64,000 nucleotides of DNA from the NCBI GenBank assembly GCA_951406725.2, contig OX597831.1:38192001-38256000 (forward strand). The letters run 5' to 3'. Each line of letters begins with the position of its first letter. The first letter of the stretch is position 1. Under the pieces are notes generated by a model. It ran no database searches. It was not told the DNA's origin and saw nothing but the letters and a program-made list of their open reading frames with translations. Made by a program: the position numbers and the translations under genes. This DNA is from Octopus vulgaris. Taxonomy: Eukaryota. Below are positions 2,901-60,579 of the stretch, piece by piece.

Positions 2901-2902
2901 TC

Positions 2903-8263: not shown

Positions 8264-8521
8264 AAGTATCTTCTTTCTCGAAATGAATTAAGAACTTAGA
8301 TAATTAGATTTCCTGGTTAATAATGGTATGAGTTTAATGAATTAAAAGTTCCTAGTGCATTAATGTGGAGAAATGTTAGATCTGTGAATATGTTGGATAT
8401 ATTGTTTCAAAAAATTTATTCTGATCTTTTTTCGATAAAGCTGTGCCAGTGAGAGAAGTAAGTTGGTAGAATACCTAAAAGTGCAGGCAATACCTTCTTC
8501 TGTATGTTTCTAATATATATA

Positions 8522-9403
8522 TAAGGTCTGATCAATAAGTATCTCGACTGTTGCCATAGCAACAAAGATAAGGCACGCAGAGTAAAGCTGCTTGGCAAAG
8601 ATTGACCTTGAACTCTGTTGTGCATGCGCACTAAGATTTGATGTTCTACCTCACTTTTGCTGTTTTACAGCAATGCTTGGAGAGAAGATGTGTAGCGTGT
8701 GATCATCGCATTGACCATGACTGAGTAAATTGTCATGGCGATACCTGCTTAGAAGCCTACGCATAGTTGCAGAAAGTGTATGGAGATAAGTGTATGAACT
8801 GCACACAAGTGTACGAGTGGATCACAAGTTCCCAAGTTGGTGGGAAAATGTCGATATTGGTGAACGTTCTGGGAGACCCGTAACCACCAGATCTGAGAAA
8901 AACATCGCAGATGTGCGTGCAGCTGAGACGAGAAATCGTCGAATCACCATCCATGAGTTATCACAGGATGTACAGATTAGTTTCGCTTCAGTTCAGTCCA
9001 TTATCACTGCAGATTTGGGTATGAGACGCGTGTCTGCCAAATTTGAGCCAAAACTGCTTTCTGCTGTCCAAAAACGCACTTAGGATTCACTTGTTGCACA
9101 AGATCACCTTTATTGTGTCCAGAACGATACAGATGTTATGAAAACTTTGCGTAGGTCTCTACGTAGGCAGCTATCGCCAAGCTTTCGTCAAAACATTATG
9201 CAAATTCTCTGCTCAACTATATCATGGTCAATGCGACGATCTCGCGCTACACACCTTCTTTCCAAGCACTGCTGTAAACAACGAAATGAGCTAGAACGTT
9301 AAAACTTAGTACGCATGCACAACAGGGTCCAAGGTCAGTATTTGCCGGGCGGCTTTTCACTGCATGCTTGACAACAGTCCTGATAATTATTGATTAGACC
9401 ACG
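8522..9403 (+). mobile_element. Internally deleted mariner element with ~200-bp terminal inverted repeats
   Basis: Arms 8522-8720 and ~9223-9403 are inverted and TA-flanked. The interior encodes ERSGRPVTT...RRITIHELS...LGMRRVSAKFEPKLL (mariner HTH and WVPxxL-like linker). Confidence 0.85.
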
Positions 9404-9420
9404 TTTATATATATATATAT

Positions 9421-9540
9421 AAACTTAGATAAACTTAGATATGTTTCGACCAAAGATTGGTCCAGGCCATGTCTAACTTAATAGCACCACCTGATAGGAT
9501 TATTCGAATCCTGTTTAAGTCAAGTTTTGTTCAAGTAGTG
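9421..9540 (-). mobile_element. Short TA-embedded element, family H4 (HHR-like half motif)
   Basis: Shares ccaggccatgtctaacttaatagcaccacctg and a hairpin-GAAAC with 35886-35965; TA repeats on both sides. Confidence 0.55.
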
Positions 9541-9741: not shown

Positions 9742-9779
9742 GTATAAATTGTATATATAATATATACATATCGCATTTA

Positions 9780-10173
9780 TTCTTTTTTCTGTAGGCGCAA
9801 GGCTCGAAATTCAGGGCGAGAGCGATGGTCGACTACATCGACCCCAGTGCGCAACTGGTCCTTATTTCATCGACCCCGGAAGGATGAAAGGCAAGTCGAA
9901 CCTTTGTGGAATTTGAACTCGGAAGAAATGCCGTACACCTTATAGATGGAAATAATCATGGTTTCAAATTTTGCCACAAGGGCAACAATTTTGTAGAAGC
10001 ACTTAAATCGATTACATTAACCCCAGAGTTCAACTGGCACTTATTTTATCGGCCCCCAAAAGGATGAAAGGCAAAGGGAACATCGACGGAATTTGAACTC
10101 AGAACGTAGCGAAGAACGAAATATCGCTAAGCATCTTGCCTGGCGTGCGAACGATTTTGCCAGCTCGCCGCCT
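9780..10173 (-). mobile_element. Two adjacent SINE family B copies (9780-9935 partial, 9960-10173)
   Basis: The atcgaccccg-aaggatgaaaggcaa domain occurs twice; head cagctcgccgcct ends at 10173. Confidence 0.82.
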
Positions 10174-10429
10174 TAAATAATAATAACGAAATAGAACTTC
10201 ACTCATTTTTCTTGATAATGTCTTTTCTTTTTATGTACCCCTCACTTCTTTCCCTTTTTTTTCTTGCAAAGAATCCAAACTTCATTAATATGACTTGGAA
10301 CCTTTCTGATTTAATTGAATTGAGAGCTTGACATTTACCAGGATAAATACGAACATTGTTTCTTAACAACTGGCCTACCTTCATGTTGTAACAGCTATGG
10401 AACTCTACTTATTTTCCTTGGTCTCCTTC

Positions 10430-12777: not shown

Positions 12778-13349
12778 ATATATGGATTTACTTCCCGCCA
12801 GTTCATTTTATTGTTCATTTTTGCGTCTTGAAATAAATCATGTATTTTGATGTTTTTTTATTACTCGTTTATAAAAACATAAACTAAATTTAGACAGCGG
12901 ACATATTGGATTACAACCCGCAAGGTTATAGGAGATTATATTGACCGCAATACTAGCCTTTTTCTCGTTCAGTACCATAACACTAAAGAACCAGATCTGT
13001 TTATCAGATGTACACCATTAGTACACATTGCAATACTTTAGGACTGAACTTTGTAATTCTCTTATTACTTAATTAAAAGCAGTACAATTAGATTTGGAAT
13101 GGAACAGGATGTTTTTTCTTTCGGATTCTCAAACCTGAAATCAAGAAGAGATGGTGGAACAGATTTTGATAAAGGCTAAAATAATATGGAACCACTGTTT
13201 TAGAATGTAAATTTTCCAGGTATTTTCTTTATTACACATTTTATCAAATGATAAATATGTAATCGTTCTGGTTATGATAAAAAGTAGAATGATTTGGGGT
13301 GAAATTTGAGTTCATAACTTAAAGTAATTTCACTCTATGCGACCAAGTA

Positions 13350-13917
13350 TTGGGTTGTCCGGAAAGTTCGTGCCGATTTACAGTAGCTTACACTTGAACT
13401 TATTTTAGAACGTGGCTGACTCCATAAAATAGGATTTGACTACACCTCTATTTACAGCACAGTTTAAGCTATCTTTTCGTGGAAGAAGTTTTATGTTCCT
13501 ATAACCTGTGTTAATTTTGTAACCCTTCAAAATGGAAGACAAGAAAGTTCATTTTCGGCACTTGGTGCTTTCGGAACCAGACAAAAATTGCTGCAGCTCG
13601 GCTGTGATATGTTACCCCACCCTCCATATTCACCAGATATAGCTCCTTCGGATTTCCACTTATTCAGGTCTCTACAGAATAGTCTTAATGGTAAAAATTT
13701 CAATTCCTTGGATGACGTAAAAAGATACCTTGATGAATTCTTTGCCATGAAACCACCTCAATTCTAGGGAAGATGGTATTTTCAAGTTAAAGGAAAGATG
13801 GAGACGCATTGTGCGACAAAATGGTTCATATTTGGTTGATTAAAGAATGTAATGCCAAGTATTTATTGACCTTTTTCTTTCCTTTAAAAATCATCGCGAA
13901 CTTTCCGTACAACCCAG
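13350..13917 (+). mobile_element. Internally deleted mariner element
   Basis: TIRs ttgggttgtccggaaagttcg / cgaactttccgtacaacccag with TA TSD. MEDKKVHFRHL is fused to TRQKLLQLG.DMLPHPPYSPDIAPSDFHLFRSLQN. Confidence 0.92.
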
Positions 13918-13987
13918 TAGTAGATGCGACGCTTTACCGATTATGCCTTTCATCTTCACTACATTTCAAACTTTTTTTACGTTTATT

Positions 13988-14404
13988 ACTCTTTAGTCTT
14001 CTACTCTTTTACTTGTTTCAGTCATTTGACTGCGGCCATGCTGGAGCACCACCTTTAGTCGAGCAACTCGACCCCGGGACTTATTCTTTTTGTAAGCCCA
14101 GTACTTATTCTATCGGTCTCTTTTTGCCGAACTGCTAAGTGACGGGGACGTAAACACACCAGCATCGGTTGTCAAGCAATGCTAGGGGAACAAACACAGA
14201 CACACAAACACACACACATATATATATATATACATATATACGACGGGCTTCTTTCAGTTTCCGTCTACCAAATCCACTCACAAGGCATTGGTCGGCCCGG
14301 GGCTATAGCAGAAGACACTTGCCCAAGATGCCACGCAGTGGGACTGAACCCGGAACCATGTGGTTGATTAGCAAGCTACTTACCACACAGCCACTCCTGC
14401 GCCT
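13988..14404 (-). mobile_element. Full-length tRNA-headed SINE family A (CORE-like domain)
   Basis: Head aggcgcaggagtggct, A/B boxes, cttgggcaagtgtctt domain, internal TA/TG microsatellite and (aaagagt)n tail. Confidence 0.92.
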
Positions 14405-14450
14405 TGTCTAAGAAAACTAATACAATGCGACTAGGAAATAAAATTTTGAT

Positions 14451-14853
14451 AGGCGCAGGAGTGCCCGTGTGGTAAGTAGCTTGTTTACCAACCACATGGT
14501 TCCGGGTTCAGTTCCACTGCGTGGCACCTTGGGCAAGTGTCTTCTACTATAGCCTCGGGCCGACCAAAGGCCTGTGAGTGGATTTGGTAGACGGAAACTG
14601 AAAGAAGCCTGTCGTATATATGTATATATATATGAGTGTATGTGTGTCTGTGTTTGTCCCCCTAGCATTGCTTGACAACCGATGCTGGTGTGTTTATGTC
14701 CCCGTTACTTAGCGGTTCGGCAAAAGAGACCGATATAATAAGTACTGGGCTTACAAAAGAATAAGTCTCGGGATCGAATTGCTCGATTAAAGGCGGTGCT
14801 CCAGCATGGCCGCAGTCAAATGACTGAAACAAGTAAAAGAGTAAAAGAGAGTA
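14451..14853 (+). mobile_element. Full-length SINE family A
   Basis: Same structure as the previous copy, arranged head-to-head with it. Confidence 0.92.
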
Positions 14854-15762
14854 AGCAATATCAGTTTTTGTTTTATATTTTAATATATTTTTTACCTAAA
14901 ATCCTCATCGCATATCAGAGGTCGAGTTAGTTTGACTCTCTACTGATCAAAATTACAAACAAGTTATTTTTTGTTCAAATTCGAAACATTGAAATGTGAA
15001 ATAAAAGTAAATTTTTGTTAAGTTATTTTTGTTTTGCTTATGCTTTCTTCTCTATTTCTAACTCACATCATATTGCGTTTCTTAAACGCTGTTAATCTAA
15101 TTCGCTATGCTTCATATCAACTACAATATTCTGAAATTTTTCTATATTTTTTTTTATTGGATACCATATAGATGTTTTCTTTGGATGTTCAATATCTGAG
15201 GAATATCTGCCTTTGATATATTTACCTGTCTTTGTTATTTACCATATTCCTTTCGTGCTCATATCTCGGTTCTTTCAATACCACTGGGGTTTTTTTTCTT
15301 CTTGTTTTTCTGTACAATCCTTGTTGACTATGCTTTTTCACAGCAATAAACAATTAACAGCTGTAGTAGCTCACACATCGTTTCCTTATGTTTATTGAAA
15401 CGTGTTTCTGTATGAAATTGTCTTATATTTTTTGATAATTAACGGAGAAGACCTGTAGTGAGAGGCGATCTAGCTGTGACCTTTCCATTTTATCGAAGAA
15501 AGGAATGAATAGCAAGAATGACATTGAAATCGATAGCCACACTATCAAAGTAATTTCTGGTATGATCCCGGTGACTGTCTTTTTCAAGATTATTATATCC
15601 AGATAGACATTATGTAATGAATCTTTCATTGGGGAATAAGATACATTTTATTTCTCTCAGGCTGGACGATTTTGAGGCTTTCATTCATGTTTACCTTTTA
15701 GTAGCTGTGTTTCTTTTAGCATGATTTTCACATATTATAAATTCAACAACTCTCGCATTGTA

Positions 15763-16329
15763 TTGGGTTGTCCGGAAAGTTCGTGCCGATTTATAGTAGC
15801 TAAACCTCTGGACTTATTTTATAACATGGTTGAGTTCATAAAATAGGATTTAACTACACCTCCATTTAGGGCACAGTTTAAGCTATATTTTCGTGGAAGA
15901 AGGTTTATGTTCCTATAACCTGTGCTAATTCTGTAACCATTTAAAATGGAAGATAAGTAAGTTCATTTTCGGCACTTGATGATTTGGGAACCAGACAAAA
16001 GTTACTACCGCTCGGGTGGCTTGTGTTACCCCACCCTCCATATTCACCAGATATTGCCCCTTCGGATTTGCACCAATTCAGGTCTCTGCAGAATAGTCTT
16101 AATGGTAAAGATTTCAATTCCTTGGATGACGTAAAAAGATACCTTGATGAATTCTTTGCCATGAAACCACCTCAATTCTGGGAAGAGGGTATTTTCAAGT
16201 TAAAGGAAAGATGGAGATGCATTGCGCAACAAAATGGCTCATATTTGGTTGATTAAAAATGTAATGGCAAGTACTTATTAACTTTTTTCTTTCCTTTAAA
16301 TATCGGTGCGAACATTCCGGACAACCCAA
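15763..16329 (+). mobile_element. Internally deleted mariner element (same deletion as 13350-13917)
   Basis: Same TIRs and TA TSD; ORF 15984-16256 contains HPPYSPDIAPSD. Confidence 0.92.
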
Positions 16330-16779
16330 TATTATTTCATTGCTGATAGAATGGTTAGTGCGTCGGAGAAAATGCTTAACAGATTTATTCCGACTCTTTA
16401 CCATATCTCGGTTCATTGAAGAAAATAATAATCAGGAGGACTGATAAGGGTTCTAGGCATCAAAACTAATATCAACATGCGGTTATTTTATTGATGTTTA
16501 TACTACATTCCTAATGCTCCTGGTAACCGTGGTGTGTGTTCCAAATATCCATCCATTCAGCCATTTCCCACGCCCACTTTTCCTGGGAGAGTCATAAAGG
16601 TAGTGTCCTATCAAAAGCAACCGCCATCACATGTTCCGACTGAATTCCCAAGCATCACTATCTGCACTATAACATTTATCCAAACATATCGCTCTTGGCT
16701 TACTGCTAGATCTCCTGCCGTTTGGGTCGACTTGAAGAAATTTTGATTGCGATAGTTTCCACTGACTTGTTAATCATAT

Positions 16780-17884: not shown

Positions 17885-17947
<63 letters not shown>

Positions 17948-18029
17948 GTGAAAAGGAACACACGAGTTGATATATATGAAAAAACAAGTCAAGATAGAAA
18001 ATGCTAAAATAATTTTATAAAGAACATTT

Positions 18030-18067
18030 CAGTACCTGTTTCGGTCATTTTGAGACCTTTTCAACTG
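18030..18067 (-). ncRNA. Hammerhead ribozyme motif, U3-A8 core variant
   Basis: Reverse complement reads cag-TTGAAAA-GGTC tcaaaat GACC-GAAA-CAGG-TA-ctg. Confidence 0.7.
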
Positions 18068-18421
18068 TAACGATTAAATAATTAAATTTAGAAAAATTAA
18101 AAGAAAAGTTTTTTTAGAGGAATATTTGTATAGTGTTCAAATATAAGTGGAATTCTGCCTTTCTCTGTCTCCTTTGTTTGCCCTTGTGTGTTCGATCGTT
18201 GTGAATTCTTGGTAGAGTAGAAGAAGAAGGTTGATGAGGAGAGGGGGTGGAAAAATTTGGGAGTGCCTTGTTTGTCGTATTTTGAATGGTCAGTGACGGC
18301 TAGCAGTTGCAGTTCAATTCAGGAGGATATTTCTATTGAAAGGTTTGTTTATTGAATTTGCGTAGGTGTTTTACTAAAAAGCATTAGTGATAAAGTTAAG
18401 AGGTAGAAGGTGGAGCAGAAG

Positions 18422-18509
18422 CTTCTTCTTCTTCTTCTTCTTCTTCTTCTTCTTCTTCTTCTTCTTCTTCTTCTTCTTCTTCTTCTTCTTCTCCTCCTCC
18501 TTCTTCTTC
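18422..18509. repeat. (CTT)n microsatellite inside the inverted-repeat spacer
   Basis: Directly visible. Confidence 0.95.
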
Positions 18510-18614
18510 AGAGACAGAGAAAGGCAGAATGCCACTAATATTTGAACACTATACAAATATTCCTTTAAAAAAACTTTTCTTTTAATTTTTCTAAATTTAA
18601 TTATTTAATCGTTA

Positions 18615-18652
18615 CAGTTGAAAAGGTCTCAAAATGACCGGAACCGGTACTG
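18615..18652 (+). ncRNA. Hammerhead ribozyme motif, U3-A8 core variant (GAAA mutated to GGAA)
   Basis: cag-TTGAAAA-GGTC tcaaaat GACC-GGAA-CCGG-TA-ctg, with palindromic ACCGGU stem III. Confidence 0.62.
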
Positions 18653-18698
18653 AAATGTTCTTTATAAAATTATTTTAGCATTTTTTATCTTGACTTGC

Positions 18699-18830
<132 letters not shown>

Positions 18831-23046: not shown

Positions 23047-23200
23047 GGCGCAGGAGTAGCTTGCTTACCAACCACATGGTCCCCTGTTCAGTCCCACTGC
23101 GTGGCACCTTGGGAAAGTGCCTTCTACCACAGCCTCGAGCCGACCAAAGCCTTGTGAGTAGATTTGGTAGACGGAAACTGAAAGAAGCCCGTCGTATATA
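23047..23200 (+). mobile_element. SINE family A, 5' half with a small deletion in the head
   Basis: ggcgcaggagtagcttgcttacc, a microhomology deletion relative to other copies; ends at the internal TA repeat. Confidence 0.88.
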
Positions 23201-23212
23201 TGTATATATATA

Positions 23213-23323
23213 TAACGTTAATCCAAACATGAAAACACAAAGAGAAAACACAACAATGTGAGATCGTGTAACAAGCATAGTGTTATTGTTGGACGCTCAG
23301 GAAAGGAGAGAAAGAATGAGGAT

Positions 23324-23804: not shown

Positions 23805-24940
23805 TCCCAGTTAGCCTTGAGTTCCACACATTTTTTTCCATCAGTGTTGCAGTGCTGGATCCCATTGGTGAAGAGGCTTTCATCCTGTTGATCACAAGAG
23901 ACATCAACAGCAGATATGACGTCATTACAACTGCGTTACTGGTTCCCAGCTTTTTTTCTTTTGTTTTTCATATTGGGAAACAGATGATAGTTAGATGGGG
24001 CCAAATCAGAAGAAGGGGAAGAACGAGCATCTAGTTCAATGTCACAGTCCCACACAGTAGCAACTGAAACCATGGACTGTGTGTTGGAACTTTGTCCTGA
24101 TGAAACAGGACCCCTTTCGTCCGTTTGTCTGGGCATTTGGTCTTCATAGCTTTTCATATCTGATTCTACAAGCTGGCATATTACTTTCTGTAGCCGGTGT
24201 AGCCATTTTGAAGACAATGAAAGGCAGGTGAAGAGCAGTGTTTCCACTACATGGATTGTCTCTTTGTCTATGACTCACATTAGTGAACCCAATACTGATC
24301 TTGACTATGTAAATGTTCAAGGCAACGACCTGGATCTGCCTCAAACATTGTCAGATTTTCCATGAAGTGATGAGGCCGGTGTGCTTTTGATGAGGTGTCA
24401 GAAAACGTGGCACCTACAGAGCAAAGACCTTCGTCATGCCAAGCTCATTGTGGAGAATATTCTCAACTCTCTCACGGGATATACTATTAGCCTTCGTTAT
24501 TTCATTTATTGTCAATCGCTTGTCATCTATCAACATGTGGTAAACGCGATCAATGTTTTCCTCAGTAGTGGCAGTTGCATGACGTGTACACTTCGAGTCA
24601 TCTTCAACACACTCCCTTCCTTTACAAAATTCAGCTGCTCACTTTTGCACTGTTGAGAGAGCTGGAGCGTTATCCTGGAATATAGCAACCATGTTAGTAT
24701 GAATATTATTGGGGGAACCACGATGTCAATCTCTATTTTCCATTTTCCATTTGTCCATTTGCAAGAGGAGTCGCTGCAGGTTACATTTGAATTCTTCTTT
24801 GAATAATCAGATATCAGTTTACTTTGAAAGGCAACAATAATAAAAATCTGAATAAGATGTTGAAATTAATGCTTTCACGATTTCACAGCTCTAGCATCAC
24901 TCCTTCAAAGTCTTCCTACGACTTTTGAAGCCCACCCGCG
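23805..24940 (-). mobile_element. Decayed near-full-length mariner transposon
   Basis: Terminus TA-cgcgggtgggcttcaaaagt. Peptides TTEENIDRV...RERVENILHNELGMTKV and SSDLAPSNYHLFPNMK are present, with many frameshifts. Confidence 0.8.
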
Positions 24941-27529: not shown

Positions 27530-28173
27530 GGCATTCTGTCGGATACGACGATGAGGGTTCTAATTCATCACTGGAACAGCCTGCTCGGGAAATTAATGAG
27601 CAATTGGCTAAGCACTGAACAGAGACGCGTTATCGTAGTTAAGGGTCACAAAGAATGTGACAAAGCTGGCCCTTTCAAATACAGATATTACTCATTTTTG
27701 CCAGCTGAGTGGACTGGAGCAACGTGAAATAAAGTGTCTTACTCTTTTACTCTATTACTTGCTTCAGTCATTTGACTGCGGCCATGGTGGAGCAACGCCC
27801 TTAGTCGAGCAAATCGACCACAGGACTTATTCTATCGGCCTCTTTTGCCAAACCGCTAAGTTACGGGGACATAAACATACCAGCATCGGTTATCAAGTGA
27901 TGTTGGTGGGACAAACACAGACACAAACATATACACACACATACATATATATATATACATATATACGACGGGCTTCTTTCAGTTTCCGTCTACCAAATCC
28001 ACTTACAAGGCTTTGGTCGGCCCGAGGTTATAGTAGAAGACACTTGTGCAAGATGCCACGCAGTGGGACTGAAACAGAACCATGTGGTTTGTAAGCGATC
28101 TACTTACTACACAGCCACTCCTGCGCTCCAGAACACAAACGCATCATCAAATACCCTAACCACTAAGCCACGC
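27530..28173 (-). mobile_element. SINE family C split by a nested SINE A insertion
   Basis: actcatttttgccagctgagtggactggagcaacgtgaaataaagtgtctt stops at 27740 and resumes as gctccagaacac...ccctaaccactaagccacgc at ~28125; compare 43131-43280. Confidence 0.75.
27741..28126 (-). mobile_element. Full-length SINE family A (nested)
   Basis: Homologous to 13988-14404. Confidence 0.9.
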
Positions 28174-29682: not shown

Positions 29683-31012
29683 ACATGTTTGTATATAGCC
29701 ATATGTATACGTTCATCCTTACAGGTTTGCATATATATATATAAATAGAAATATATCGGTATTCTATAACAAATGCACACAGGAACATGTACGTAGATGT
29801 AGTATATATACCCTCATAAAAACTACTACATTCGTATACACACTCTTTTTACGCACATATGTATGAAAATTATACACGGGTACGAAGGTTTTGTAAACAA
29901 TAAACGAAATGCACTGTTTGTTTTGTTGTAAGTCCTTCTATAAATTTCCGTCAGATACAAGCTTTTAATGGCGTTCTGAAGACCACTCACATCCATATGA
30001 TATCGCTGCTGTTGCTTATGATGTTGTTGGTGTTATTATTTCACTCAAAGTCATTTCCATCTGAACAGTGACATAACCAAATATTTTCATACATTTCCAA
30101 TAATAACAATCTGTGTAGAATATCATCATTTCATGTGCCGTTTATTTATTTTTTTATCCTTTATGATCAGCAGAAAATAATGGATGGGTTTGCTATACCT
30201 GGGTATAACAATTACCAGCACAATTGCCGATCATTCGATGCAGGTATATCTGCAATCAGGCGTTTTAAATTTCTCTCGAATCATTCTGTCTCTCATCGTC
30301 TCCCTTGCTTCCCCCTCTCACGCTCCCTCTCTAACTCTCCCACACCTCTCTCTCTCTCTCTATTTATCAATATCCCTATCTGTCTCTCTGTATATGTACG
30401 TTTGCTGATTTCTCTCTCTTCTATTCTCTATCCTTTCTCTCTCCACCTATTTATTTCTGCTCTCACATGTCTTTGTGAATCGGCGCGAACTGCTCTGTGT
30501 GTTTCGCTTGCAGCGCTAAAGAAGTGCTGCCGCTAAAACAGGCTCAATGCCTAACTGGCCGTGTCAAATAATCTACACCCAAATAGCAGCACCCATTCAT
30601 CTCATTCCAAAAATTTACTCTTTAGAATTAATCTAGACTTAAAAGAGAAGGTATTCGAATGAACTGAACATACAGGAACATATTTTACAACGTGGATAAC
30701 TACCCAGTCTTATTAAATTGTTGATGCAAAGAGAACTAATATACACATCATTATATGCATCTATACAAGATCTGATTTTGATGATAGTCCTTCACGCAAA
30801 ATAATTTTTTTATACCTATACCAGCAATGACATACATTTAGCCAGAACAACTTGGAGAAAGCAAAGAGGAGGAGTAGGGTATGCATCATACATAAGCATA
30901 AACAAAGGCAATACATAACTTCAACGGGTATATATACAAATGTGTAGCACCCTATGCCTCTGAGACGTGCAAAAGGATAAAAGAATAAAAGAATTTGTAT
31001 ATATATTACTTC

Positions 31013-31242
31013 CTTTACTCGTCCATTTGCTTCAGTCACCCTACGGTGGTCATTCTGGATCACAGCCTTAAAGTGTTTTTAGTTCAAGAAACCGACACCA
31101 AGAGTTATTCTTTGCAAGACTACTACTTATCCTATCCATTTCTCTTGCCGAACTGCTAAGTTACAGGGACATAGACACACAACCATCGGTTGTAGAGCAA
31201 TGTCACGGAGAAAACCGCAGACTCAAACATAAATACACACGC

Positions 31243-31287
<45 letters not shown>

Positions 31288-31446
31288 GGTTTCTTTCAGT
31301 TCCCGTCATTCAAATCCATTAACAAGTCCTTGGTCGACCCTCGGCTACAATAAAATGATACTTGCAAAAGGTGCCACGCAGCGGGATTGAACCCGGAACT
31401 ATGTGGTTGGGAATCAACCTTTTTCTCTTAAAGCCACACATCCGCT
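31013..31446 (-). mobile_element. Diverged full-length SINE family A
   Basis: Collinear with 13988-14404, with many substitutions. Confidence 0.82.
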
Positions 31447-35329: not shown

Positions 35330-35532
35330 TAATCCAAACAAGAAATCACAAAAAAAACACAACAACGCGTGGACGTGGAACAAATATAGTATTATTGGAC
35401 ACTCAGGAAAGAAGGACAGATGGAGGGTTTAACGTTTCGAGCGGAGCTCTTCGTCTGAAACATAGGAGAAGGAAAGATCCAGAGAAGGGAATTTAGAGGA
35501 AAAAATCGCCAACGGTATATATCACATTTTGA
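35322..35532 (-). mobile_element. HHR-bearing element, family H1, between TA tracts
   Basis: Homologous to 390-570 and 53620-53835. Confidence 0.72.
35427..35461 (-). ncRNA. Hammerhead ribozyme motif (core CAGACGA, one substitution)
   Basis: Reverse complement reads gttt-CAGACGA-a-GAGC tcc GCTC-GAAA-C-GTT-aaac. Confidence 0.62.
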
Positions 35533-39467: not shown

Positions 39468-39525
39468 TATATACAAAGTTAATATAAGCAATAAAACACA
39501 GAGCTTAATGAAAGGTATGAATAGA

Positions 39526-39940
39526 AGGCGCAGGAGTGGCTGTGTAGTAAGTAGCTTGCTTACCAACCACATGGTTCCGGGTTCAGTCCCATTGCGTGGC
39601 AACTTGGGCATGTGTCTTCTACTATAGCCTCGGGTCGACCAAAGTCTTGTGAGCGGATTTGGTAGACGGAAACTGAAAGACGCCCGTCGTATATATGTAT
39701 ATATATATATATATGTATGTATGTATGTTTGTATGTCTGTGTTTGTTCCCCCAACATAAACTGACAACTGATGCTGGTGTGTTTACATCCCCGCAACTTA
39801 GCGGTTCGGCAAAAGAGACCGATAGAATAAGTACTGGGCTTACAAAGAATAACTCCTGGGGTCGATTTGCTCGACTAAAAGACGGTGCCCCAGCATGGTC
39901 GCAGTCAAATGACTGAAACAAGTAAAAAAGAGTAAAAAGT
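39526..39940 (+). mobile_element. Full-length SINE family A
   Basis: Complete from head to tail. Confidence 0.92.
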
Positions 39941-40145
39941 ATATCTAAGAATCCCAATCGTGAATCCAGAATCATATCTGGAGTATTCACGGTTTCAAAT
40001 ATTATCTTTAATGTCAACGTATACAACAACAGCTTGAAATACGTTTTCCCACATAACCCTTTTAATATGCTTATATTCATTTATGTATGTTTGTATGTTT
40101 GTTTGTATGTATGTTTGTATGTATGCTTGTATGTATGTATGTATG

Positions 40146-40363
40146 TACTCTTTACTCTTTTACTCTTTTACTAGTTTCAGTCATTTGACTGCGGCCATGC
40201 TGGAGCACCGCCTTTAGTCGAGCAAATCGACCCCGGGACTTATTCTTTGTAAGCCTAGTACTTATTCTATCGGTCTCTTTTGCCGAACCGCTAGGTGACG
40301 GGGACGTAAACACACCATCATCGGTTGTCAAGCAATTCTAGGGGGACAAACACAAACACACAA

Positions 40364-40412
<49 letters not shown>

Positions 40413-40578
40413 TACGACAGGCTTCTTTCAGTTTCCGTCTACCAAATCCACTCACAAGGCATTGGTCGGCCCGGGGCTATAGCAGAAGACACTTGCCCAA
40501 GATGCCACGCAGTGGGACTGAACCCGGAACCATGTGGTTGGTTAGCAAGCTACTTACCACACAGCCACTCCTGCGCCT
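40146..40578 (-). mobile_element. Full-length SINE family A, tail-to-tail with the previous copy
   Basis: Complete from head to tail; very similar to 13988-14404. Confidence 0.92.
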
Positions 40579-40779
40579 CTCTATATATGTGTGCATATAT
40601 TTATACATACATATATAATGGGAAAATTGTACACAATCTATAAACGATGATGACTAAAGCACCGGCAGAGTTTCCATTACCTGCTCTTATACGTAGATTT
40701 ACTACAGGGACATCGTAGGTGTAGTTGGGGTAACAATATTAATGAAATTGGAGATTGAATGTGCAACAGACTTTATTGG

Positions 40780-43680: not shown

Positions 43681-44054
43681 TAACTCTTAAAAGTATGTAT
43701 AAAAGAGCCATGTTCATGTACATATATATCTGTGTGTGTGTGTGAGTGTGCTAAAGTATTCCCTTTAAATATAATCAAAACCTTGTCCTGGGACAAACAC
43801 TTGAATGTGTTTGTGTCTTACTAAAAGTTAAAACGTTTTACAGCTCTGAAAAGAAAATGCATCTTAAAATATTGGTAAAAAGAAGAACAATCTGTCTGAA
43901 CTAAATTCTTGAAGTAAGAATTAGAAACACCTACGTAGGCTAAATTATCTAAAATATTGTTTTTCGACAAGAGCAACAAAAATTAAATAGAAACAGAAAT
44001 TTCGGAGGACTCGGAGCAACGTTTGTGACTCTAGAAGCAAAATTGTTTTAAATA

Positions 44055-44453
44055 TTCTTTTCTACTCTCGGAAAAAGGCTGGAAATTGATGGTGATGGAG
44101 ATCAGTCGATTAGATCGAACTAGTACCTAACTGGTAGTTAATTTATTGACCCCGAAAGGATGAAGGGCAAAATAGACCTCGGCGGAATTTGAACTCAGAA
44201 CGTAAAGCCAAACGAAATACCTATTTTTCTACTAGCCAAAAGGGGCTAAACACAGAGAGGACAAACAAACGGACAAACGGATTAAGTCGATTATATCGAC
44301 CCCGGTGCGTAACAGTTACTTATTTAATCGACCCCGAAAGGATGAAAGGCAAAGTCGACTTCCGCGGAATTTGAACTCAGAACGTAACGGCAGACGAAAA
44401 AAAACCGCTAAGCATTTTGCCCGGCGTGCTAACGTTTCTGCCAGCTCGCCGCC
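44055..44453 (-). mobile_element. Dimeric SINE family B copy
   Basis: Same acgaaatac|ctattt...aggggctaaacacagagaggacaaac junction as 7848-8263. Confidence 0.85.
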
Positions 44454-46139
44454 ATAAAATTATTTTAAATATTGAATTAACTAATACAAGAATATCAAGA
44501 AACGTGGATTTGAAGAGTTTGAGATAAGCATTATTGAAACTTAAACAGTTCGAATATTAATTTCTACAAAATAATAAGAAATTGAAATGAGATGTAGTAA
44601 CCAAATAATTGCTAGGGTTAACTGTATAAAACTGTTTTCCAACAGCATTTATCTGAATCATGTCAGCATAACAATATAACAAACTAGCCGTGTTTCACAT
44701 TAATCTGGAGTCTTGTATACAACAACTGTTCTACAGTGTACCATTAAGAGTTAAATGTGTTATCCAGAAAGATTTTTATTATGCTCAATTAGATGTGAAC
44801 CACCAAGCCTTCTGATGCACAGGACGTTGACTTCATGACACTACGACGCAGCTACTGCCTTGAATAATAAACTTGTTTCAATTAGTTATCAATATTTTAG
44901 TCGTGATATATGGGATTGTTGAATAGCTTGTTGAAAACTACTCTGTTCTTGTTGATGTAGTTGTCGCAATGTTACACGTCAGTAATAACAATACTACAAA
45001 TAATGTTATTTCAAAAATCAAACTACTGCTAACAAAATAAAACTAGATGTTAAATACAAGAAGTAATTAAATCATCAATTAAACTAATACCAAATGCACT
45101 TTGGAATGTTTTAATTATGAATGGAGTGATTCTGTAGAGAAACAATAATGATGATGCTGATTATGATGATGACGATCATTCTGCAAAATACAATACGAAA
45201 GATACAAGCTAACAGCCATCAAATATAAAACGAAAACAAAACGCAACAATAAATGCATCAAAAATAAGAACTATCACAGAGATTACCAAAGTTTTCCTCA
45301 ATTTAATTTTACATTAGTTTGTAAAGTAATTTTGAAAACATTACAAAAAGAATTCCATAAAATTTAGCCATAAAGACTATTAATACATCCACCTCTCTCC
45401 GTCTCTCTCTTCCTTGTCCTCTCTCTCGCTCTCTGTTACTCGTGTCTTCATTATCATATTCTGTTAATCATTCGCACACGGATACACACCCTTCTAATAA
45501 TTCCATTCATTTTCTATCTCCAGCAATTTGTTTTCATTTTTGTTTTTACATTTATATTATCGTTTTCCTAATGTGAAGCTACATACTGAAGAAGAGAATT
45601 AAAAACAAATTCTCAAAGAGGAACGAAGAAAAACGACAGATAACGTATACAAAGCACTCTTCAATAAACCTAGCTCAACTCAGAAAAAATATGTGTGTAT
45701 TGATATTGGTTATCACTGAGAAGACGAAATGAATAAAGTAAATATGAAAAACTTAGGTAAAAAAAACTACTTAAATTACAACATATTTTGAAGAATGTTT
45801 CAAGTAATTTAAGCGAATTGATGCTATGGTAGTAATTATTTCAGTATTCTCAGAATTTAAAAGGGTTTGAGAAACTTTCAAAATACAAAGATCTGGAAAT
45901 AGAGGTAACACAAATGTGGAATCTAAAAACAGAAATACTGTCTATCATAATAGTTGCATTAGGTATTTAAAAAAATATTCAGAGAAATACATAACAAAAA
46001 CACCAAGGCTAACAAATATGTATAACATGCGGGAAATAGCACTACAAGGCACCGCACACATAATAAGTAACAGATTTTCAATACAGTGAAAATAATGCGC
46101 TCGGTAGTGCAGTGAAGGCACGTGATTAAAATAAGACTA

Positions 46140-46310: not shown

Positions 46311-48040
46311 ACGTTCCCTATTGGCCACAGGGCCCACACAAAATCAAAAGGATATTACGCAAAATGAACAAGGGACGGAGGATTTAGACGATGCACATAA
46401 ATTGTAAATAAGCAAAAGTAAGTAACAATCGAATTTCAACAAATATATTCCCCATTTGGGGGGAAAATCCAAAGAGGTGCGTCCAAGGAAGCTCTACACA
46501 CGATGGAAACCCGATCACACAGGATGCCGCATGCATGCACCCCTGTTGTCTTCAACCTCCCCAGCCTACAAGCGCATACTTAGTGTAGGCCCATTAACAC
46601 GGGCCATCCTGGCCGCATTCATCCACCTTTCAACGAAATTACTGGGTGACAGCTCCTCCCTCTCCACCCTCACCTTCATTTTCAGGTCGAACCTGAAAAT
46701 GTTAACGAGTCTTTGGCCGCAGAGGAACGATTCTATCTAGAACTCTTTCACACGCGTCCACCACACAACCTCTTTCGACATAGCCACCAGAAAGAGAAAA
46801 ACTGCCTGACCTTCCTAGCCAAAGGAAGGTGGCGGGGTATCTTCATGATGGAATCAGACGAGAGTCGGATCCGTCCCTCATGCAACACCGACTATTCGGC
46901 AAAGCTCATTAAGCCAGTAATACCCGGGCACTGTAAGAGTACGTGCAGGATGGCTTCATTGCTCTGCGCGCCTCTCGGACAGGACCGACGGACCACATTT
47001 CCGTGTCTGTAGAGCTTGTCTCAAACTGGTAGAGGTCCCCACCCCGTAGCAAAGCTAGGCCAGGGATTTCAGGAAATTATCTATGGACTTTAACGTTCTC
47101 CAGAAACGACCAGCCAACTGATCATCTGCAACGCCCAGAAATACCCCCAGAACGTCGTCACACTTACTCTCCACTAATACCCTATAGAACTTCATTGTGG
47201 GGCTTCCACCGACCGCATCACCCGACTGGCTTAGAAATATGAGCACTTGAAAAATACTCTAAATATCAAACGCCCTGTCTCGGTCTACGCTTGATCCTGA
47301 ACTGTTCCTCCGTCAAAGAGACGAGCAGCGGGGAAGCGCGTTTAACAAACGGCGACCACATCTGTTCACCAATAAACTATTGCTGGAGATATCGCAGCCT
47401 TAGCGCATGACTGCGCATCATTAGCCACGGAGTCCCCAGAACTCCACACAGCAGATGCTGAGAGCAAATGGATCATCTGGCAAGCGGAACCTGTCCTTTC
47501 CACAGAAAGTGGAAGAGCAAGCTATCCAGCTTAATCAACCACGAAGCAGGGCACCGAAAGACGGTCAGGCGGTAATAGATGTACGTATTTTCTAGCTCCA
47601 TCCGACTTTTCATGCACAGTTTTCTCACGCCCCACTTCTGGATGAGATTGACCGCCCTGCTTGTGACCTTCTTCGAAGTTCTTGTCCACTTGGAGATTTA
47701 GACAAAACCAGACACCGAGCAGTTTAACCGATTCTTCTGTCCAGCCTCCAACTACACTGTCGGTTGGCATGGACCTGGCCCACCAGGTGCCGAGCTGTAG
47801 GCCTACTGACATCTCCTGATTAATCTTTCCTCCTTTCACCCCTTCGTATTCCTTTAGTGTAATGTGAATCACCACGATTTCCGAAAAGTACCCATTAGCT
47901 TTGTCCACCGAGCATATGTCGCTATACAATGGAGCAATCCAGCCACTGAAAACGGGAACAAAACCAGCAGCCTTCAGGACAGCCGCCAAGTATTTATTGT
48001 CGACCTTATCAAAAGCTTTCGATTAATCTAAATTGATCCA
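46311..48040 (-). mobile_element. 5'-truncated, decayed Tx1/L1-like LINE (RT to 3' end)
   Basis: INLD*SKAFDKVDNKYLAAVLKAAGF...WIAPLY...NG; KINQEMS...VKLLGVWF; LFHFLWKG; degenerate C-terminal CP...H.L.QCP. Ends in (ATC)n. Confidence 0.85.
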
Positions 48041-48780: not shown

Positions 48781-49916
48781 AAGATATTGAAACTAACGGA
48801 TATAAACATCTGCGAATTATAGAATGCGACAATATCAAAGAACGTGAAATGAAGGAAAGCTTTAGGCGAGAATATCTCAGAAGAACCAAGTTAATTATGG
48901 GAAGCAGACACGACAGGAAAAACAAAATTAGAGCAATGGACACATGGGCTGTTTCCTTAATGAGATACGGCGCAGGTGTTGTTGGGTGGAGAAAGGGCGA
49001 TCTTGAGGAAATGGACAGGAAAACTAGGAAAGTAATGAGAATTAACAAGGAACTATACTCGAAAAGCAATAGTGACAGACTGTGAGAGCCTAGAACCAGG
49101 GGTGGAAGAGGTTTCATAGGATGCAAAACTTGTGTTGTCAACGAGAACAAGAGTTTGAGGTGGCTAAAAAAAAATGCAAAGGGAATCATTTCTCGCTTCT
49201 GTTAGAATTAACAATATAATACCTTCTGAAAATGTGATACACCCACAAACGTTTAAGAAAGAAGATGAAGAAGAAAGAGTAAACAACTGGAAAATGAAAT
49301 CACTGCAAGGGCAATACGTCAGAGGAATCGAAGGAAAAGATGAACACTTGGAGATGGCTAAGAAAAAGTGATCTGAAAGGAGGCACTGAAGCATTGATAG
49401 GCAGCTCCCAGGAACAAGCTCTGAGAACTAAATACAATAAGTTCTAAATGTATAAGAGCAACAAATCGCCTCTTTGTAGGGTTTATAGCAGTAGAAACGA
49501 AACAATCTCATATATTGTGAGTGAATGTAGCAAGCTGACCCACTAAGCACAACAAAATGTGGCATGATAATGTGGCTAAGTTCGTCCGTTGGAGACTGTG
49601 AAAAGTATGGTTTGAACCGAGGATGGAAATGGTACGAACATTAACCAGAAGGAGTTACTGAGAACATTGAACATAAGGTATTGTCGGATTTTACATTCCA
49701 TTCTGACTTCCTCGGAGTCTCCCAAGGCTCGGAGACCAGATAGTGTTGTGGTAGATAGGGGAAAAGAGAAAACCAGGATCACAAATATTATAATACCTGG
49801 GGATTCATGCATAAGTGAGAAAAAACTAGAAATGATTGTAAAGTACAGATTACTAAAATACGACATTGCAAGAATGTGGACTACGAGGAGAATGTCTGTC
49901 ATTCAAGTAGTTGTAA
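48781..49916 (+). mobile_element. 5'-truncated R4/Dong-like LINE with restriction-like endonuclease remnant
   Basis: YKHLRIIE (YKYLG-like), NKIRAMDTWAVSLMRYGAG...DRKTRK, PRTRGGRG, QEQALRT, CR...ETISHIVSEC, HDNVAK, WYEH.PE, ARRPDSVVVD...EKKLE.IVKY. Abuts (TAA)n, the known Dong target. Confidence 0.88.
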
Positions 49917-50086
49917 TAAATGTATTTTTAGAGGAAAAATTAATGGATTTGTTCCCTTATAAGGTTTTTTTCACGCTAAATACTTGATAAATTCTTATAA
50001 AGATTTTATCCTATTTTTCAATTATATATGTGTGTGTATGTATATATATACATGTACATATGTAGAGAGACACACACATACATGTG

Positions 50087-53619: not shown

Positions 53620-53835
53620 CATCAATGCAATAAGAAAAGGAGAAAAAACACAAAAAAGCAACTCGGAGAGGACGTGGTATATGTAAAGTATTAGCGGACG
53701 CTGAGGGAAGGAAAGAAAGGTGGTTTTACATTTCGAGAAAAGCTCTTCTTCAGAAACAGGAGACAGGAACGTCCAATAGAAGAGGAAGACGGAGGAAAAT
53801 AAATCGCCAACGATTCACATGTGGTTACATTTTGA
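53620..53835 (-). mobile_element. HHR-bearing element, family H1
   Basis: Homologous to 390-570 (gaggacgtggta.atgtaaagtattagc..acgct.agggaaggaaaga). Confidence 0.72.
53723..53757 (-). ncRNA. Hammerhead ribozyme motif
   Basis: Reverse complement reads gttt-CTGAAGA-a-GAG ctttt CTC-GAAA-T-GTA-aaac. Confidence 0.65.
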
Positions 53836-53861
53836 ATCTATATGAATCTATATGAATGCAT

Positions 53862-53906
<45 letters not shown>

Positions 53907-53958
53907 TATATATATATATGAAAGAAGGTTTGAAAATGCAATTTTAAAAGATGTATAT

Positions 53959-54004
53959 TCACTTGACCGGTTTCACTTTTTTAGAAAATGATTGTCAAAA
54001 GTAA
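53959..54004 (-). ncRNA. Hammerhead ribozyme motif, U3-A8 core variant
   Basis: Reverse complement reads ttactt-TTGACAA-tc-ATTTT ctaaa AAAGT-GAAA-CCGG-TC-aagtga. Stem I is 6 bp, stem III is the ACCGGU palindrome, and the triplet is GUC. Confidence 0.68.
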
Positions 54005-54328
54005 CATGGAAAAGCTTTGTTGTGCTAGGTACTGGATGCCACAAAATATTGCAATGCATATATATATTCTTTGATAATAATAAGAACATGTTAAAAACAA
54101 TACATATATTTTCTGTAAACTGTCTTTTACATTTTCTTATTATTATCAAATAATGTATATATGTATTGTAATTTTTTGTGCCTAATATTTTAATGAACTT
54201 TTTAATATTTTCTCAAGACTTTTCCTTGTTAACTGTTTTTAACATGTTCTTATTATTATCAAAAAATGTATATATGTATTGTAATATTTTGTGACAACCA
54301 GTACCTAACACAACAAAACTTTTACATG

Positions 54329-54374
54329 TTATTTTTGACAATCTTTTTCTAAAAAAGTGAAACCGGTCAAGTGA
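54329..54374 (+). ncRNA. Hammerhead ribozyme motif, U3-A8 core variant
   Basis: ttattt-TTGACAA-tctttttctaaaaaagt-GAAA-CCGG-TC-aagtga. Confidence 0.62.
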
Positions 54375-54799
54375 ATAAAGATCTTTTAAAATTGCATTCT
54401 CAAACGTTCTTTCATATATAATTCCACTCGTGCGGTACCTTACAACTTCACTGTGTTATATATATGCATATAAGTGTGTATACGTGTGTATACATATGTA
54501 TGAAAATATACTTGAATGTGTGTGCATGGAAGATCTATTTTTACAAACCTCTTAATTTTCTCATATGCGCTAGTTCATTCGTTTTAGACCATATCATCCA
54601 CACCCAAATATTTGCAGTCAACTTCAAGTTTACATTTTCCATTGCTGAAAATTGGAATAATAAATAACATATAAGTACTCGTGATTGAACGCTTAAAATT
54701 ACTTCATTATAACATCAGGAGCACGTTATTTTCTTCATCCCGGAAACCGGGATTCATCGTACGGTCCACACTTACAAAGCGGTACGGATGTATACCGAA

Positions 54800-56184: not shown

Positions 56185-56508
<324 letters not shown>

Positions 56509-57524
56509 TATTTTCTTTATTGTTGGACGTTTTAAACAATTATGGCAAAATCACTTTTGCGTTACCCATGTTTGGTTTTCTTATTTAGTTATTCATGGAT
56601 TCCTACATGTACGCTTAATGGAGGTGCATTGAATATCAGACTAAACAAAATGAATGTTTATAAAAGTGAACGGACGCAGAATAAAACTAGAGCGAAACAG
56701 ACAAACAACGCTGGTGCTTTACAACACAAATATCACACAAAAATGTTTTGTCCAATCAAAGTAACACTGGAATGTAAACATTCATTTGCTAAATAAAAAA
56801 AAATATTGTATAAACTTTTACCACCACTCCTAGACGAATACCAAATATGAATTCTGCTAAAAGAAAATTCCCAGTCCTCCGTTTGCCGAAAGGAATCAAG
56901 GAAACAAAGAAATCGACACTAGTTGTAAATTTATTTATTTGAACATGAACAAATTTTGGTGGTACTTTACGGATACTCTAAAACAAATATCGAATATTGT
57001 TATGTCGTTTACTGGAAGTGAGATCTATTCTATTAGGCAGATATCTATTCTAGAGCAAATATATATGTGCGTCGATAAATTGGCTTAGTGTGGCAGACGA
57101 TTACTCATTGCTGAGGTCTTCAAACACACAACAATACAGAAAAATATCAGAGACAACGAGGACTCTACTCGTTAATAATTTTCGTATCACAAATTGGGAT
57201 ATTTGGGAGCACTGAATTTCCCTTTAATAATTTGATGTTGAAATCAGTCTTCGTGTTCTAAGAAATGCTGACGATTCATAAGAAGCTGATGAATTTACAA
57301 AGGGCGATTCCGGGGTATGCATAGTAGTGCCTACAGTATGAAGGTTTCTAATAAACCAATATCAAAGCGCTTCATAAGCCAGAAAACTTCGAGTGATAAA
57401 CTTGTTATAGCATCAGAGAAACTGCCAAGGAGTCTATAATTTGCTTCTTTAAAACTATGCTAAGATTAAAAGGTTTAACTTTTCATCATACCAAGTATGA
57501 TTAATTAATACAACAGTTGAGTAG

Positions 57525-58225
57525 TTTACGCTCTCAGTTCAGATTCCACCGACGTCGACTTAGTATTTCACTCTTTCGAAGGCCGATGAGATTAGTACTA
57601 ATAGAGCTCTGGCGTGGATGACAGCGACTAGCTCTCTCACACAATATTTCAATCCTTGTGCCTAGGTCACAATCGTTATCATGCCGAACAAACTGCTAAG
57701 CGGCATTTGGTCAGTCTTAACGTTCTGACTCCGAATTCCGCCGAGGTCGACATTCCTTTTCATTCTTTCGGTGTCGATCAAACAAATGTCAGTAAACTAC
57801 AAAGGTGGATTTAATCGACTAGCCTTCTCTCCAAAATTTCAACCTTTAGTAGAGAGTATTATTGTTATTATAATTGTAATGATCTGGCAGAATCATTACC
57901 GTATCGGTACAAATTGAATAACGACATTTCTTTATGTTCCGAGTTCAAATCCTGCCTTTCATCCTCTCGAATCGATTAAATAATATTATTATTATCATTA
58001 TTATTATTAAGGCGGTGAGCTGGAAAATCGTTAGCACACAGGCAAAAATGCTTAGCTGTATTTCGACTGCCACTACGCTCTGAGTTCAAATTCGACGAGG
58101 TTGACTTTGCATTTCATCCTTTCGGTGGGTCGATAAATAAAGACCAGTGAACTACTGGAGTCGTTGTAATCGACTAGTCCCCTCCCCTAAAATTTCAGGC
58201 CTTATGCTTATAACAGAAATTATTA
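57525..58225 (+). mobile_element. Head-to-tail cluster of four SINE family B copies or fragments
   Basis: The B-box plus gtcgact..tttcatcctttcg domain recurs near 57535, 57725, 57938 and 58080. The best-preserved copy is 58009-58225. Confidence 0.75.
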
Positions 58226-58226
58226 A

Positions 58227-58259
<33 letters not shown>

Positions 58260-58350: not shown

Positions 58351-59765
58351 TATACACTGTTATTCATCTATCGTATTTTATACAACATTGTATTTACACT
58401 ACTAAATGCGTACAAGAAACACAGAAGCGTTTTATGTTGTGGCGCTTTTTTAATCTTCTAATTGCATACCATTAATTAACTCTAAATTAGGGAAATGTTA
58501 AAGGATGAATTAACAATTAAATAGTTGCTAATATGTGTAATTTTATATAAACATATTTACTCATTATAAATTTCTTTTTCAAAGGGAATATTATACACTG
58601 ATGTGTGTATAGTTAAGTATTCTCCATATCTCTTTCGATGTAAATACTAGAAGGGATTAAAAATAAACGAGATAATAGAAGGAGATAAGTAGAATGTAAA
58701 ATTAATTGAATAAGAATTTTAATGACAAAAGTATTTTATAGAAAAAGGAAAAAAAAAATCAAAAACAAAGGAAGGCTCGACGTTTACACCTCCTCAATTA
58801 GAATAGCATCCTTTAAAATCGATGCATTAATTAATATATAGAGATGTGTATTAAAATTGATTAAAAAATATTTGTGTGAATATCTATAAACACATACTGA
58901 TTATGTGAAAATAAGGTATGTGTATGTGGATGTGTCCATGTGTGATACGTGCATATTCGATAGATGTACGTATATAAATACAAGCGTAGAAAATTTTATG
59001 TGGATATATATGAGTGCTTATATAGATAGATACGTATGTATGTATGAATATAACTATATTATGATTCTGTTCGTTCGTTCGACCACACATTACGTTCTAA
59101 CTTGTTAGATAGAGAGAGAATTGGAATGAGTGAGAGACGGAGTAAGTGAAAGAGGTAGAGTTGGTGTGATAGTGACAGAGTGGGTGAGGGAGAGAGAGAG
59201 AGAGAGAGAGAGTGGGAGTGAGATAAATACATAGTTAAAAGATACATTACGATGTGACGTGGTTAGCGGAAGTGAGAAGAGAAAGAGAAAGAAAGAATGT
59301 CAACGACGCGAACACGGTAAAAATGTTTGTTGAAGTAAGAGGTAGAGTGAAATATAAAGTGTTCAGCAAAGAGTAGTAATATCATATATTATTCTGACTG
59401 GAAAATAGATGCAGATTTTATATTATTTGTCAATTTGCAATGAAATTGAAAATAATAATGTAAATTATAACATCGTGTATATTCACTATAACCTTTTGTG
59501 CACATGGTTTTGTGCATAAGATGTGAAGGAATCATGATAGAATATTGCGTAATAAGGAATATGCTATTAAATATTGGTATTGCAATTTCAAAAGAATATG
59601 AATTCAATACTGTAAAGACGGTTAATATATATTTGCATATTACTTATTGCACAGAGAAAATAAAATTCATATGCAATAAGCATGCAAATTTTGTTTTCTT
59701 TCTTAATTGGTTCCTCATAATTTTTTTCATTCCGTAGAATTTCCGCGGATACCGCTACTATATAT

Positions 59766-60197
59766 ACTCTTTTACTGTTTTACACTTTTACTTGATCCAG
59801 TCGTTTGACTGTGCCCTTGCAGGAGCACCGCCTTTAGTCGAGGAAATCGACCCCAGGACTTATTTTGGGTAAGCCTGATACATATTCTATCGGTCTTTTT
59901 TGCCGAATCGCTAATATACGGAGACGTAAACACACCAGCATCGGTTGTCAAGCGATGTTGAGGGGGACAAACACAGACACACAAACATATACACACACAT
60001 ACATATACACATATATATATATATATACAAATATACGACGGGCCTCTTTCAGTTTCCTTCTACCAAATCCACTCACAAGGATTTGGACGGCTCGAGGCTA
60101 TTGTAGAAGACACTTGGCCAAGGAGCCACGCAGTGGGACTGAACCCGGAACAATGTGGTTGGTAAGCAAGCTACTTACCCCACAGCCACTTCTAGGC
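59766..60197 (-). mobile_element. Full-length SINE family A
   Basis: Collinear with the other copies. Confidence 0.9.
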
Positions 60198-60244
60198 ATA
60201 TATATATATATATATATATATGTGTGTATGTGTGTGTGTGTGTA

Positions 60245-60305: not shown

Positions 60306-60540
60306 TTTATTTCTTTATTGCCCACAGGGGGCTAAACATAGAGGAGACAAACAAGGACAGACAAGGGGATTAAGTCGTTTATATCGACCCCAGTGCTTGA
60401 CTGGTACTTATTTAATCGACCCCGAAAGAATGAAAGGCAAAGTCGACCTCGGCGGAATTTGAACTCAGAACGTAACGGCAGACGAAATACCGCTAGGCAT
60501 TGCACCCGGCGTGCTAACGTTTCTGCCAGCTCACCGCCTT
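60306..60540 (-). mobile_element. Monomeric SINE family B with the cccacaggggg-type tail
   Basis: Near-consensus copy with head gctcaccgcctt. Confidence 0.9.
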
Positions 60541-60579
60541 TATATATATTTATATATGTTTGTGTGTATGTGTGTGTGT

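Follow-up and report, generated by a model that had tools for sequence, protein, structure and literature searches.

A likely Penelope-like insertion with U3-A8 hammerhead motifs in a TA microsatellite of Octopus vulgaris

The window analysed here is a stretch of 64,000 nucleotides of Octopus vulgaris DNA (contig OX597831.1, positions 38,192,001 to 38,256,000 of the forward strand), and all positions below are counted from its first letter. At about 54 kb lies an inverted repeat of 537 bases that has a tail on one side, is embedded in a TA microsatellite and recurs in a great many variant copies (Table 1). Two copies of the same 3' end stand head to head, each with a U3-A8 hammerhead motif, TA repeats lie on both flanks, and the 36-nt tail is found at the right end only. 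An earlier note on this DNA had claimed a second inverted-repeat element here, and the claim is borne out: the arms (53913-54099 and 54234-54420) are 187 nt each, 92% complementary and 134 nt apart, and without the TA run they are 180 nt long with 15 differences (53920-54099 against 54234-54413, 165/180 identical). The spacer is an upstream continuation of the arm and not foreign DNA, because 54109-54180 repeats 54220-54293 (89% over 74 nt, at an offset of about 112 nt). Contigs of all four sequencing runs that were aligned (4/4) start to fit at 54109, upstream of which the letters differ, and some contigs extend further upstream. The right arm ends in TCATATATA, 52 nt beyond the predicted cut site, and in one run (X3) 28 contigs go on as TA repeats past 54420. 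The TA run is the sole k-mer common to both flanks, which leaves no target-site duplication to be recognised, and (TA)n on both flanks is a trait also of the Naiad and Neptune elements and is therefore not diagnostic of the Hydra clade considered below.

Table 1. Features of the 54-kb element, and the comparator at 18 kb (window positions)
Feature	Positions	Strand	Basis or remark
Comparator, another family of the same design	17946..18705	-	window self-comparison, motif scan
Left flank, host microsatellite of (CA)n followed by (TA)n	53865..53919	.	sequence; merges with the element's TA end
Left arm: inverted, 5'-truncated, tail-less copy	53920..54099	-	53913-54099 including the TA run
Left-arm hammerhead motif (core 53965-53998, stem I 6 bp)	53959..54004	-	
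Probable junction filler, 9 bases, between inverted and direct copy	54100..54108	.	contig fit
Direct copy, 5' part, AT-rich, no ORF	54109..54233	+	Pfam blank
Right arm, direct copy, pseudo-LTR-like 3' end	54234..54420	+	self-comparison
Type I hammerhead motif of the right arm	54329..54374	+	pattern match and stem reading
TCATATATA end motif; inverted arm stops here and runs into host (TA)n	54412..54420	+	
Tail, 36 bases, one-sided, holds ACTCGTG	54421..54456	+	partly common to the 18-kb element
(TA)n right flank	54457..54470	.	sequence

Other repeats surround these two elements. What we take, by their motifs, to be mariner-like remnants lie at 8503-9427 (with inverted ends at 8503-8720 and 9222-9427), 13347-13922, 15760-16334 and 23936-24640, and reading frames that are presumably decayed LINE-like ones, again by their motifs, lie at 47369-48022 and 48900-49990; Pfam gave no transposase match on the former and no support for the latter. 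A SINE-like family of about 400 bases occurs at 13997-14848 and 39521-40584, both of them head-to-head pairs forming long palindromes, and at 27739-28126, 59759-60201, 31006-31424, 23055-23194 and 56346-56511. A second abundant dispersed family (7850-8263, 9778-10193, 44053-44472, 57668-58247, 60308-60557 and others) often adjoins trinucleotide microsatellites, and one further inverted repeat (2622-3056, arms 2622-2768 and 2908-3056, 77%) has neither a hammerhead motif nor TA flanks. There is also a third hammerhead family, canonical (C3-G8) and minimal, at 489-515, 53727-53753 and about 35430-35460, all on the minus strand, with a tail piece at 23217-23321; one copy lies 170 bases left of the 54-kb element, and the core of the 35.4-kb copy is damaged. 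Its motifs carry an extra A and a G-C first pair, and in the copies at 489-515 and 53727-53753 the extra base and G-C first pair are like those of the 2014 consensus for hammerheads of other metazoan Penelope-like elements (PLEs), as given in PMC4209133.

In the right arm of the 54-kb element, stem I (54329-34/54369-74) has 6 bp, the core U3-U-G-A-C-A8-A9 lies at 54335-41, and stem II (54343-48/54352-57) has 6 bp, one C-G and five U-A. GAA and the palindrome ACCGGU, which would form stem III, follow at 54359-67, and the cut is predicted after C54368, at a GUC site. Of the features of a type I hammerhead, it has a 3-8 Watson-Crick pair (U3-A8), GAAA, an NUH site and stems I and II. In both arms the 3-8 pair is U3-A8 and a U.U (54342/54358 in the right arm) underlies stem II, the usual G10.1-C11.1 closing pair being absent; the left motif has one private change in stem II and fails the stem descriptor. 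The pattern TTGANAA-N8-25-GAAACCGGTH matches twice, at 54335-54368 (+) and 53965-53998 (-), both directed outward as had been claimed, and none in 100 shuffles (mean 0 in 100 block-wise shuffles); enrichment over shuffled sequence, which the earlier note had set as a check, is thus present. A stem-aware scan that allowed C3-G8 or U3-A8 and required at least 3 bp in stem I found five motifs in the window, against a mean of 0.12 and a maximum of 2 in 100 block-wise shuffles: these were the right arm at 54 kb, the left arm at 18 kb, a pair of canonical motifs from a different family, and a single match of poor quality. Rfam returned no hammerhead among the best 150 of 305 matches to the whole window, nor among the 9 matches to 53700-54460, and minimal PLE hammerheads need not match it.

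The present copy is predicted to be silent. Stems I and II of the right copy, in isolation, come to +0.6 kcal/mol, and the read-through RNA (-250.5 kcal/mol) pairs 46 of 47 hammerhead positions with the opposite arm, so that in these folding models the motif, of which there is one per strand, would be buried against the antisense arm. The hammerhead fold was not the minimum-energy fold, and the z-scores of the four copies in both elements ranged from -0.1 to -1.5.

The 54-kb element belongs to a large repeat family. Part of the stretch is contained in 20 of 24 listed sequencing runs, from 9 studies, and contigs were aligned from four runs of four studies, three of them DNA and one guessed to be RNA (X11, 52 contigs). 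The DNA runs, under two organism codes, gave 2,373, 5,007 and 3,116 contigs on the element, mostly 90-95% alike, and summed depth at the arm end is thousands-fold that of a single contig, which is not a copy number. About half of the ends in the family are tail-less: tail depth relative to the depth just before it was 0.44, 0.46 and 0.64 in the DNA runs, and position 54421 reads T, with the TA run going on, in 42%, 55% and 60%, to which longer TA runs in tailed copies could contribute. Four strand-switch joints, at different places, were seen among 15 of the 33 joints listed. Summed depth rises about fivefold from 54195-54217 to 54241-54263, and no position in the depth data stands out as a frequent start or end of molecules. 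In the three DNA runs, 99% of the depth at 54332 is C, which turns a U-G of stem I into C-G, and one loose-end consensus points to a subfamily in which just the free N7 position is changed, to A, and stem I is lengthened to 7 bp. At G54365, a CpG site in stem III, A accounts for 39%, 11% and 16% of depth. Core conservation was judged on 40 of 95 variant rows, which do not prove it. Separately, A>G and T>C changes make up 29 of 59 variant places (53850-54520) in the guessed-RNA run X11 and 13/47, 10/43 and 15/52 in the DNA runs (Fisher p 0.01-0.03 against X11), a hint of A-to-I editing of hairpins that alleles or other copies could also explain.

The comparator at 18 kb is built from a direct copy with tail (18422-17946), an inverted arm (18511-18697) and a hammerhead core at 18033-18064. 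Its arms, 17985-18171 and 18511-18697, are 97% complementary and 187 nt long, which agrees with the earlier claim of equal arm length (about 186 bp) in the two elements. An 87-base (GAA)n tract (18423-18510) sits exactly at the inversion junction. Neither 18-kb arm has GAAACCGGTA exactly; they read GAAACAGGTA and GGAACCGGTA, and the right hammerhead copy has GGAA in place of GAAA. The common motif GAAACCGGU(C/A) that had been ascribed to both elements is accordingly exact at 54 kb, whereas at 18 kb it exists only as a composite of the two arms. Stem II also differs, having 4 bp from a G-C at 18 kb and 6 bp on the U.U at 54 kb. The bodies are unalike, as the note had said of the arms: blastn at word size 7 found no match between the elements at E<0.5, and local alignment from hammerhead to tail gave 66/97, heavily gapped and scoring no more than 36. 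The one-sided extensions are indeed similar, with 29 of 36 aligned letters alike and a score of 34, above the maximum of 30 in 2,000 mononucleotide shuffles, although the TA run contributes part of this and the match without it is 13/16. Among 9,840 window tiles the 18-kb tail is the best non-self tile for the 54-kb tail.

Because the core, the TA end and the tail are common to both elements in the same order while the bodies are unalike, we suggest that the two families are better read as distant relatives through a terminal module that descended from a common ancestor. The 'independent recurrence' that had been proposed is therefore doubtful, and two families do not suffice to define a lineage. 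We can entertain, as a tentative idea that we would sooner doubt than accept, that both families belong to one TA-targeting PLE lineage in which U3-A8 became fixed and the TATATA-ACTCGTG-TTCAC end was kept while the remaining 3' end turned over. If this were true, screens for CUGANGA would miss the lineage and leave thousands of ribozyme motifs uncounted in an animal group, and the conserved tail would be a ready substrate for work on start-site choice by the PLE reverse transcriptase and endonuclease. By eye, and across three frames with several indels, the 18-kb spacer (18127-18425, minus strand) shows short motifs like a Hydra-type endonuclease end. One of the three frames, with X at stops, had no match at E<=10 among 21 candidates; two database matches of the frame were to long repeat proteins and were rejected as artefacts.

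Long inverted repeats, TA flanks, the lack of an ORF, high copy number and weak folding energy would all suit a MITE or some other non-autonomous DNA transposon whose terminal inverted repeats, of 180 bases, sit at a TA site and whose likeness to a hammerhead is incidental. We consider this very unlikely. The symmetrical fixed termini and inner boundaries of a MITE are absent from the 54-kb family, in which the tail is one-sided and present on about half of the ends, the joints vary and the spacer continues the arm sequence. Moreover, the motif recurs with other stems in the second family, variation within the 54-kb family respects stem I, and the mariner-like inverted repeats at 8503-8720 and 9222-9427 have no such tail or motif.

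It is also unlikely, if somewhat less so, that the family is a non-autonomous PLE derivative, a retrozyme- or SINE-like short non-coding unit with an arm of about 185 bases, moved in trans by an autonomous PLE. Animal retrozymes have been proposed to be such derivatives (bioRxiv 10.64898/2026.07.22.740005), and the animal non-LTR retrozymes described there resemble the 54-kb family in being short, non-coding and PLE-related and in having a type I hammerhead. The missing ORF remnant, the tandem units of about 112 nt upstream and the fivefold rise in depth would fit, as would the agreement of the two families in arm length (187 and 187 nt) and in the distance from junction to cut site (135 and 139 nt), which counts against random truncation. 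However, this agreement may be chance, given two cases and varying joints, and the depth step is explicable by other upstream letters before 54225. The depth data give no common start or end site of molecules, and the joints of the inversion differ between copies. Retrozymes form arrays that run head to tail, every unit having its own hammerhead, unlike the 54-kb copies, which stand head to head with a tail and whose 112-nt units hold no hammerhead.

We consider it likely instead that the 54-kb element is a dead, 5'-truncated insertion of an endonuclease-bearing PLE, whose clade is probably Hydra or a relative of it that also targets TA. PLE insertions consist of 5'-truncated copies with an adjoining inverted copy and a tail of 30-40 bp at one end, at microsatellite targets (Craig et al. 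2021, PMC8557442), and an inverted pLTR of 181 bp with an optional tail of 31 bp has been reported by Arkhipova et al. (2013, PMC3846280). The same traits are present here, with an inverted 5'-truncated copy at the 5' end, a tail of this length at one end and, close to the 3' end, a sense-oriented hammerhead motif of type I. Both parts of the earlier reading, the U3-A8 hammerhead and the PLE, are supported by architecture, shuffles and literature. Membership of the PLEs and of a clade within them rests on architecture, because no ORF link was obtained: Pfam gave no reverse transcriptase or GIY-YIG match in 369 window ORFs of at least 50 aa, a search of low sensitivity that also missed the known mariner-like and LINE-like fragments. 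Such an absence is to be expected of a 350-base 3' stub.

By analogy with other PLEs, the GIY-YIG endonuclease of the parent element would have cleaved a (TA)n tract on both strands, and reverse transcription would have begun at two sites close together in the RNA, one at 54456, where the tail ends, and one at 54420, in the TA motif. Synthesis of the two cDNAs would have broken off after roughly 350 and 180 bases, and their truncated ends would then have been joined head to head. The hammerhead of the parent may have folded as a dimer through the ACCGGU palindrome in tandem RNA, with U3-A8 replacing C3-G8, and the 8% difference between the arms would point to an old insertion, if a single RNA was the template for both. 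AT-rich DNA cut on both strands, two reverse transcriptase starts that bound the tail, and a dependence on the 3-8 pair have been described for a PLE, and cleavage was not needed for its insertion in vitro (Frangieh et al. 2024, PMC11167929). Self-priming on an antisense template is an alternative route to the same shape (PMC3846280). By the same comparison with other PLEs (PMC11167929), the conserved tail motif may be a reverse transcriptase or endonuclease signal, and its conservation in two unalike families would help to define the cis signal for the start of reverse transcription. It may alternatively be a core promoter of TATA box and initiator, by analogy with the pLTR in which a TATATATA box lies 20 bp ahead of an initiator-like TCACT (Arkhipova et al. 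2013, PMC3846280); the spacing from TATA to TCAC is about 35 nt at 54 kb and 27 nt at 18 kb.

The combined pattern gave 46 loci in a metagenome scan, none of which (0/46) had stems I and II both of at least 3 bp; as they also had no blastn match to either element, they were set aside as chance. Viral contigs had no match to a 19-mer of the family and one, unrelated-looking, match to the hammerhead pattern. In the literature on octopus, hammerheads and Penelope, and on U3-A8, the 54-kb family appears to be undescribed; a study by Lunse et al. that deals with small hammerhead variants of PLEs may cover variants of this kind.

The known picture of PLE insertions is unchanged by these findings. 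Like the units of endonuclease-bearing PLEs, the 54-kb element has a truncated direct copy and an inverted one, a tail, a microsatellite target without clear duplication and TATATA near its end; unlike them, it has no ORF. Stubs of this kind resemble MITEs, and their U3-A8 motifs escape screens for canonical hammerheads. U3-A8 itself is not new and is already known in PLEs: some 1,300 such motifs in Schistosoma mansoni were found by way of Cercyon PLEs (Cervera and De la Pena 2014, PMC4209133). That study also describes dual PLE hammerheads on opposite strands, 100-700 bp apart, and low activity, seen only in dimers or with an extended stem III, the assayed motif having a canonical core. The Cercyon hammerheads share with ours the U3-A8 covariation, the PLE context and the opposite-strand pairs, and one PLE-linked motif of Schistosoma has the UUGAAAA core of the 18-kb element. 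Unlike ours, they carry an additional base following position 9, and their first pair is G-C; their stem II is longer, their stem III is minimal and their host is a different one.

Naiad, a PLE clade whose endonuclease is N-terminal, has inverted copies, tails and (TA)n targets in common with our elements, and it was reported (PMC8557442) to be without canonical hammerheads in a core search that used 'cuganga', so that U3-A8 motifs at a Naiad 3' end could have been missed by a screen requiring CUGANGA. We nevertheless find a Naiad origin highly improbable, as the 3' part of Naiad_Obim and the whole of Naiad_Ovul and Naiad_Omin are by eye unlike either element, motif searches of the supplement found no Naiad or Hydra consensus with the family motifs, and the design of stem II is nearer to that in the Hydra list. 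In Hydra hammerheads stem III is palindromic, and stem II rests on a U.U or directly on a pair, without a single bulged base; in our hand count of file S2 (PMC8557442), U stands on both sides of the stem II base in 14 of 25 listed families and insertion is into (TA)n in 26 of 27. Hydra hammerheads lie no more than about 30-100 nt from the 3' end, the six new families ending about 29, 39, 39, 80, 92 and 103 nt past stem I, and the 54-kb element ends 46 nt past it without the tail or 82 nt with it; in one Hydra family, too, a truncated copy is inverted and its hammerhead points outward. The U.U, the TA target and these distances point to the Hydra clade, an assignment that we put, within the PLE reading, at about an even chance because no protein link was obtained. 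Hallmarks of the clade are the RWK and DKT motifs of its reverse transcriptase, a linker of the form CxCX5C and an endonuclease that lacks CCHH. Unlike our elements, all 25 of 25 families are C3-G8, a canonical descriptor having been used, and stem III is mostly one pair longer; the listed Hydra family of an octopus species also has a 3' end unlike these elements (PMC8557442). If the link to Hydra is true, this would be a second PLE clade with U3-A8, here joined to a stem II based on U.U, a natural variant of interest with regard to cleavage.
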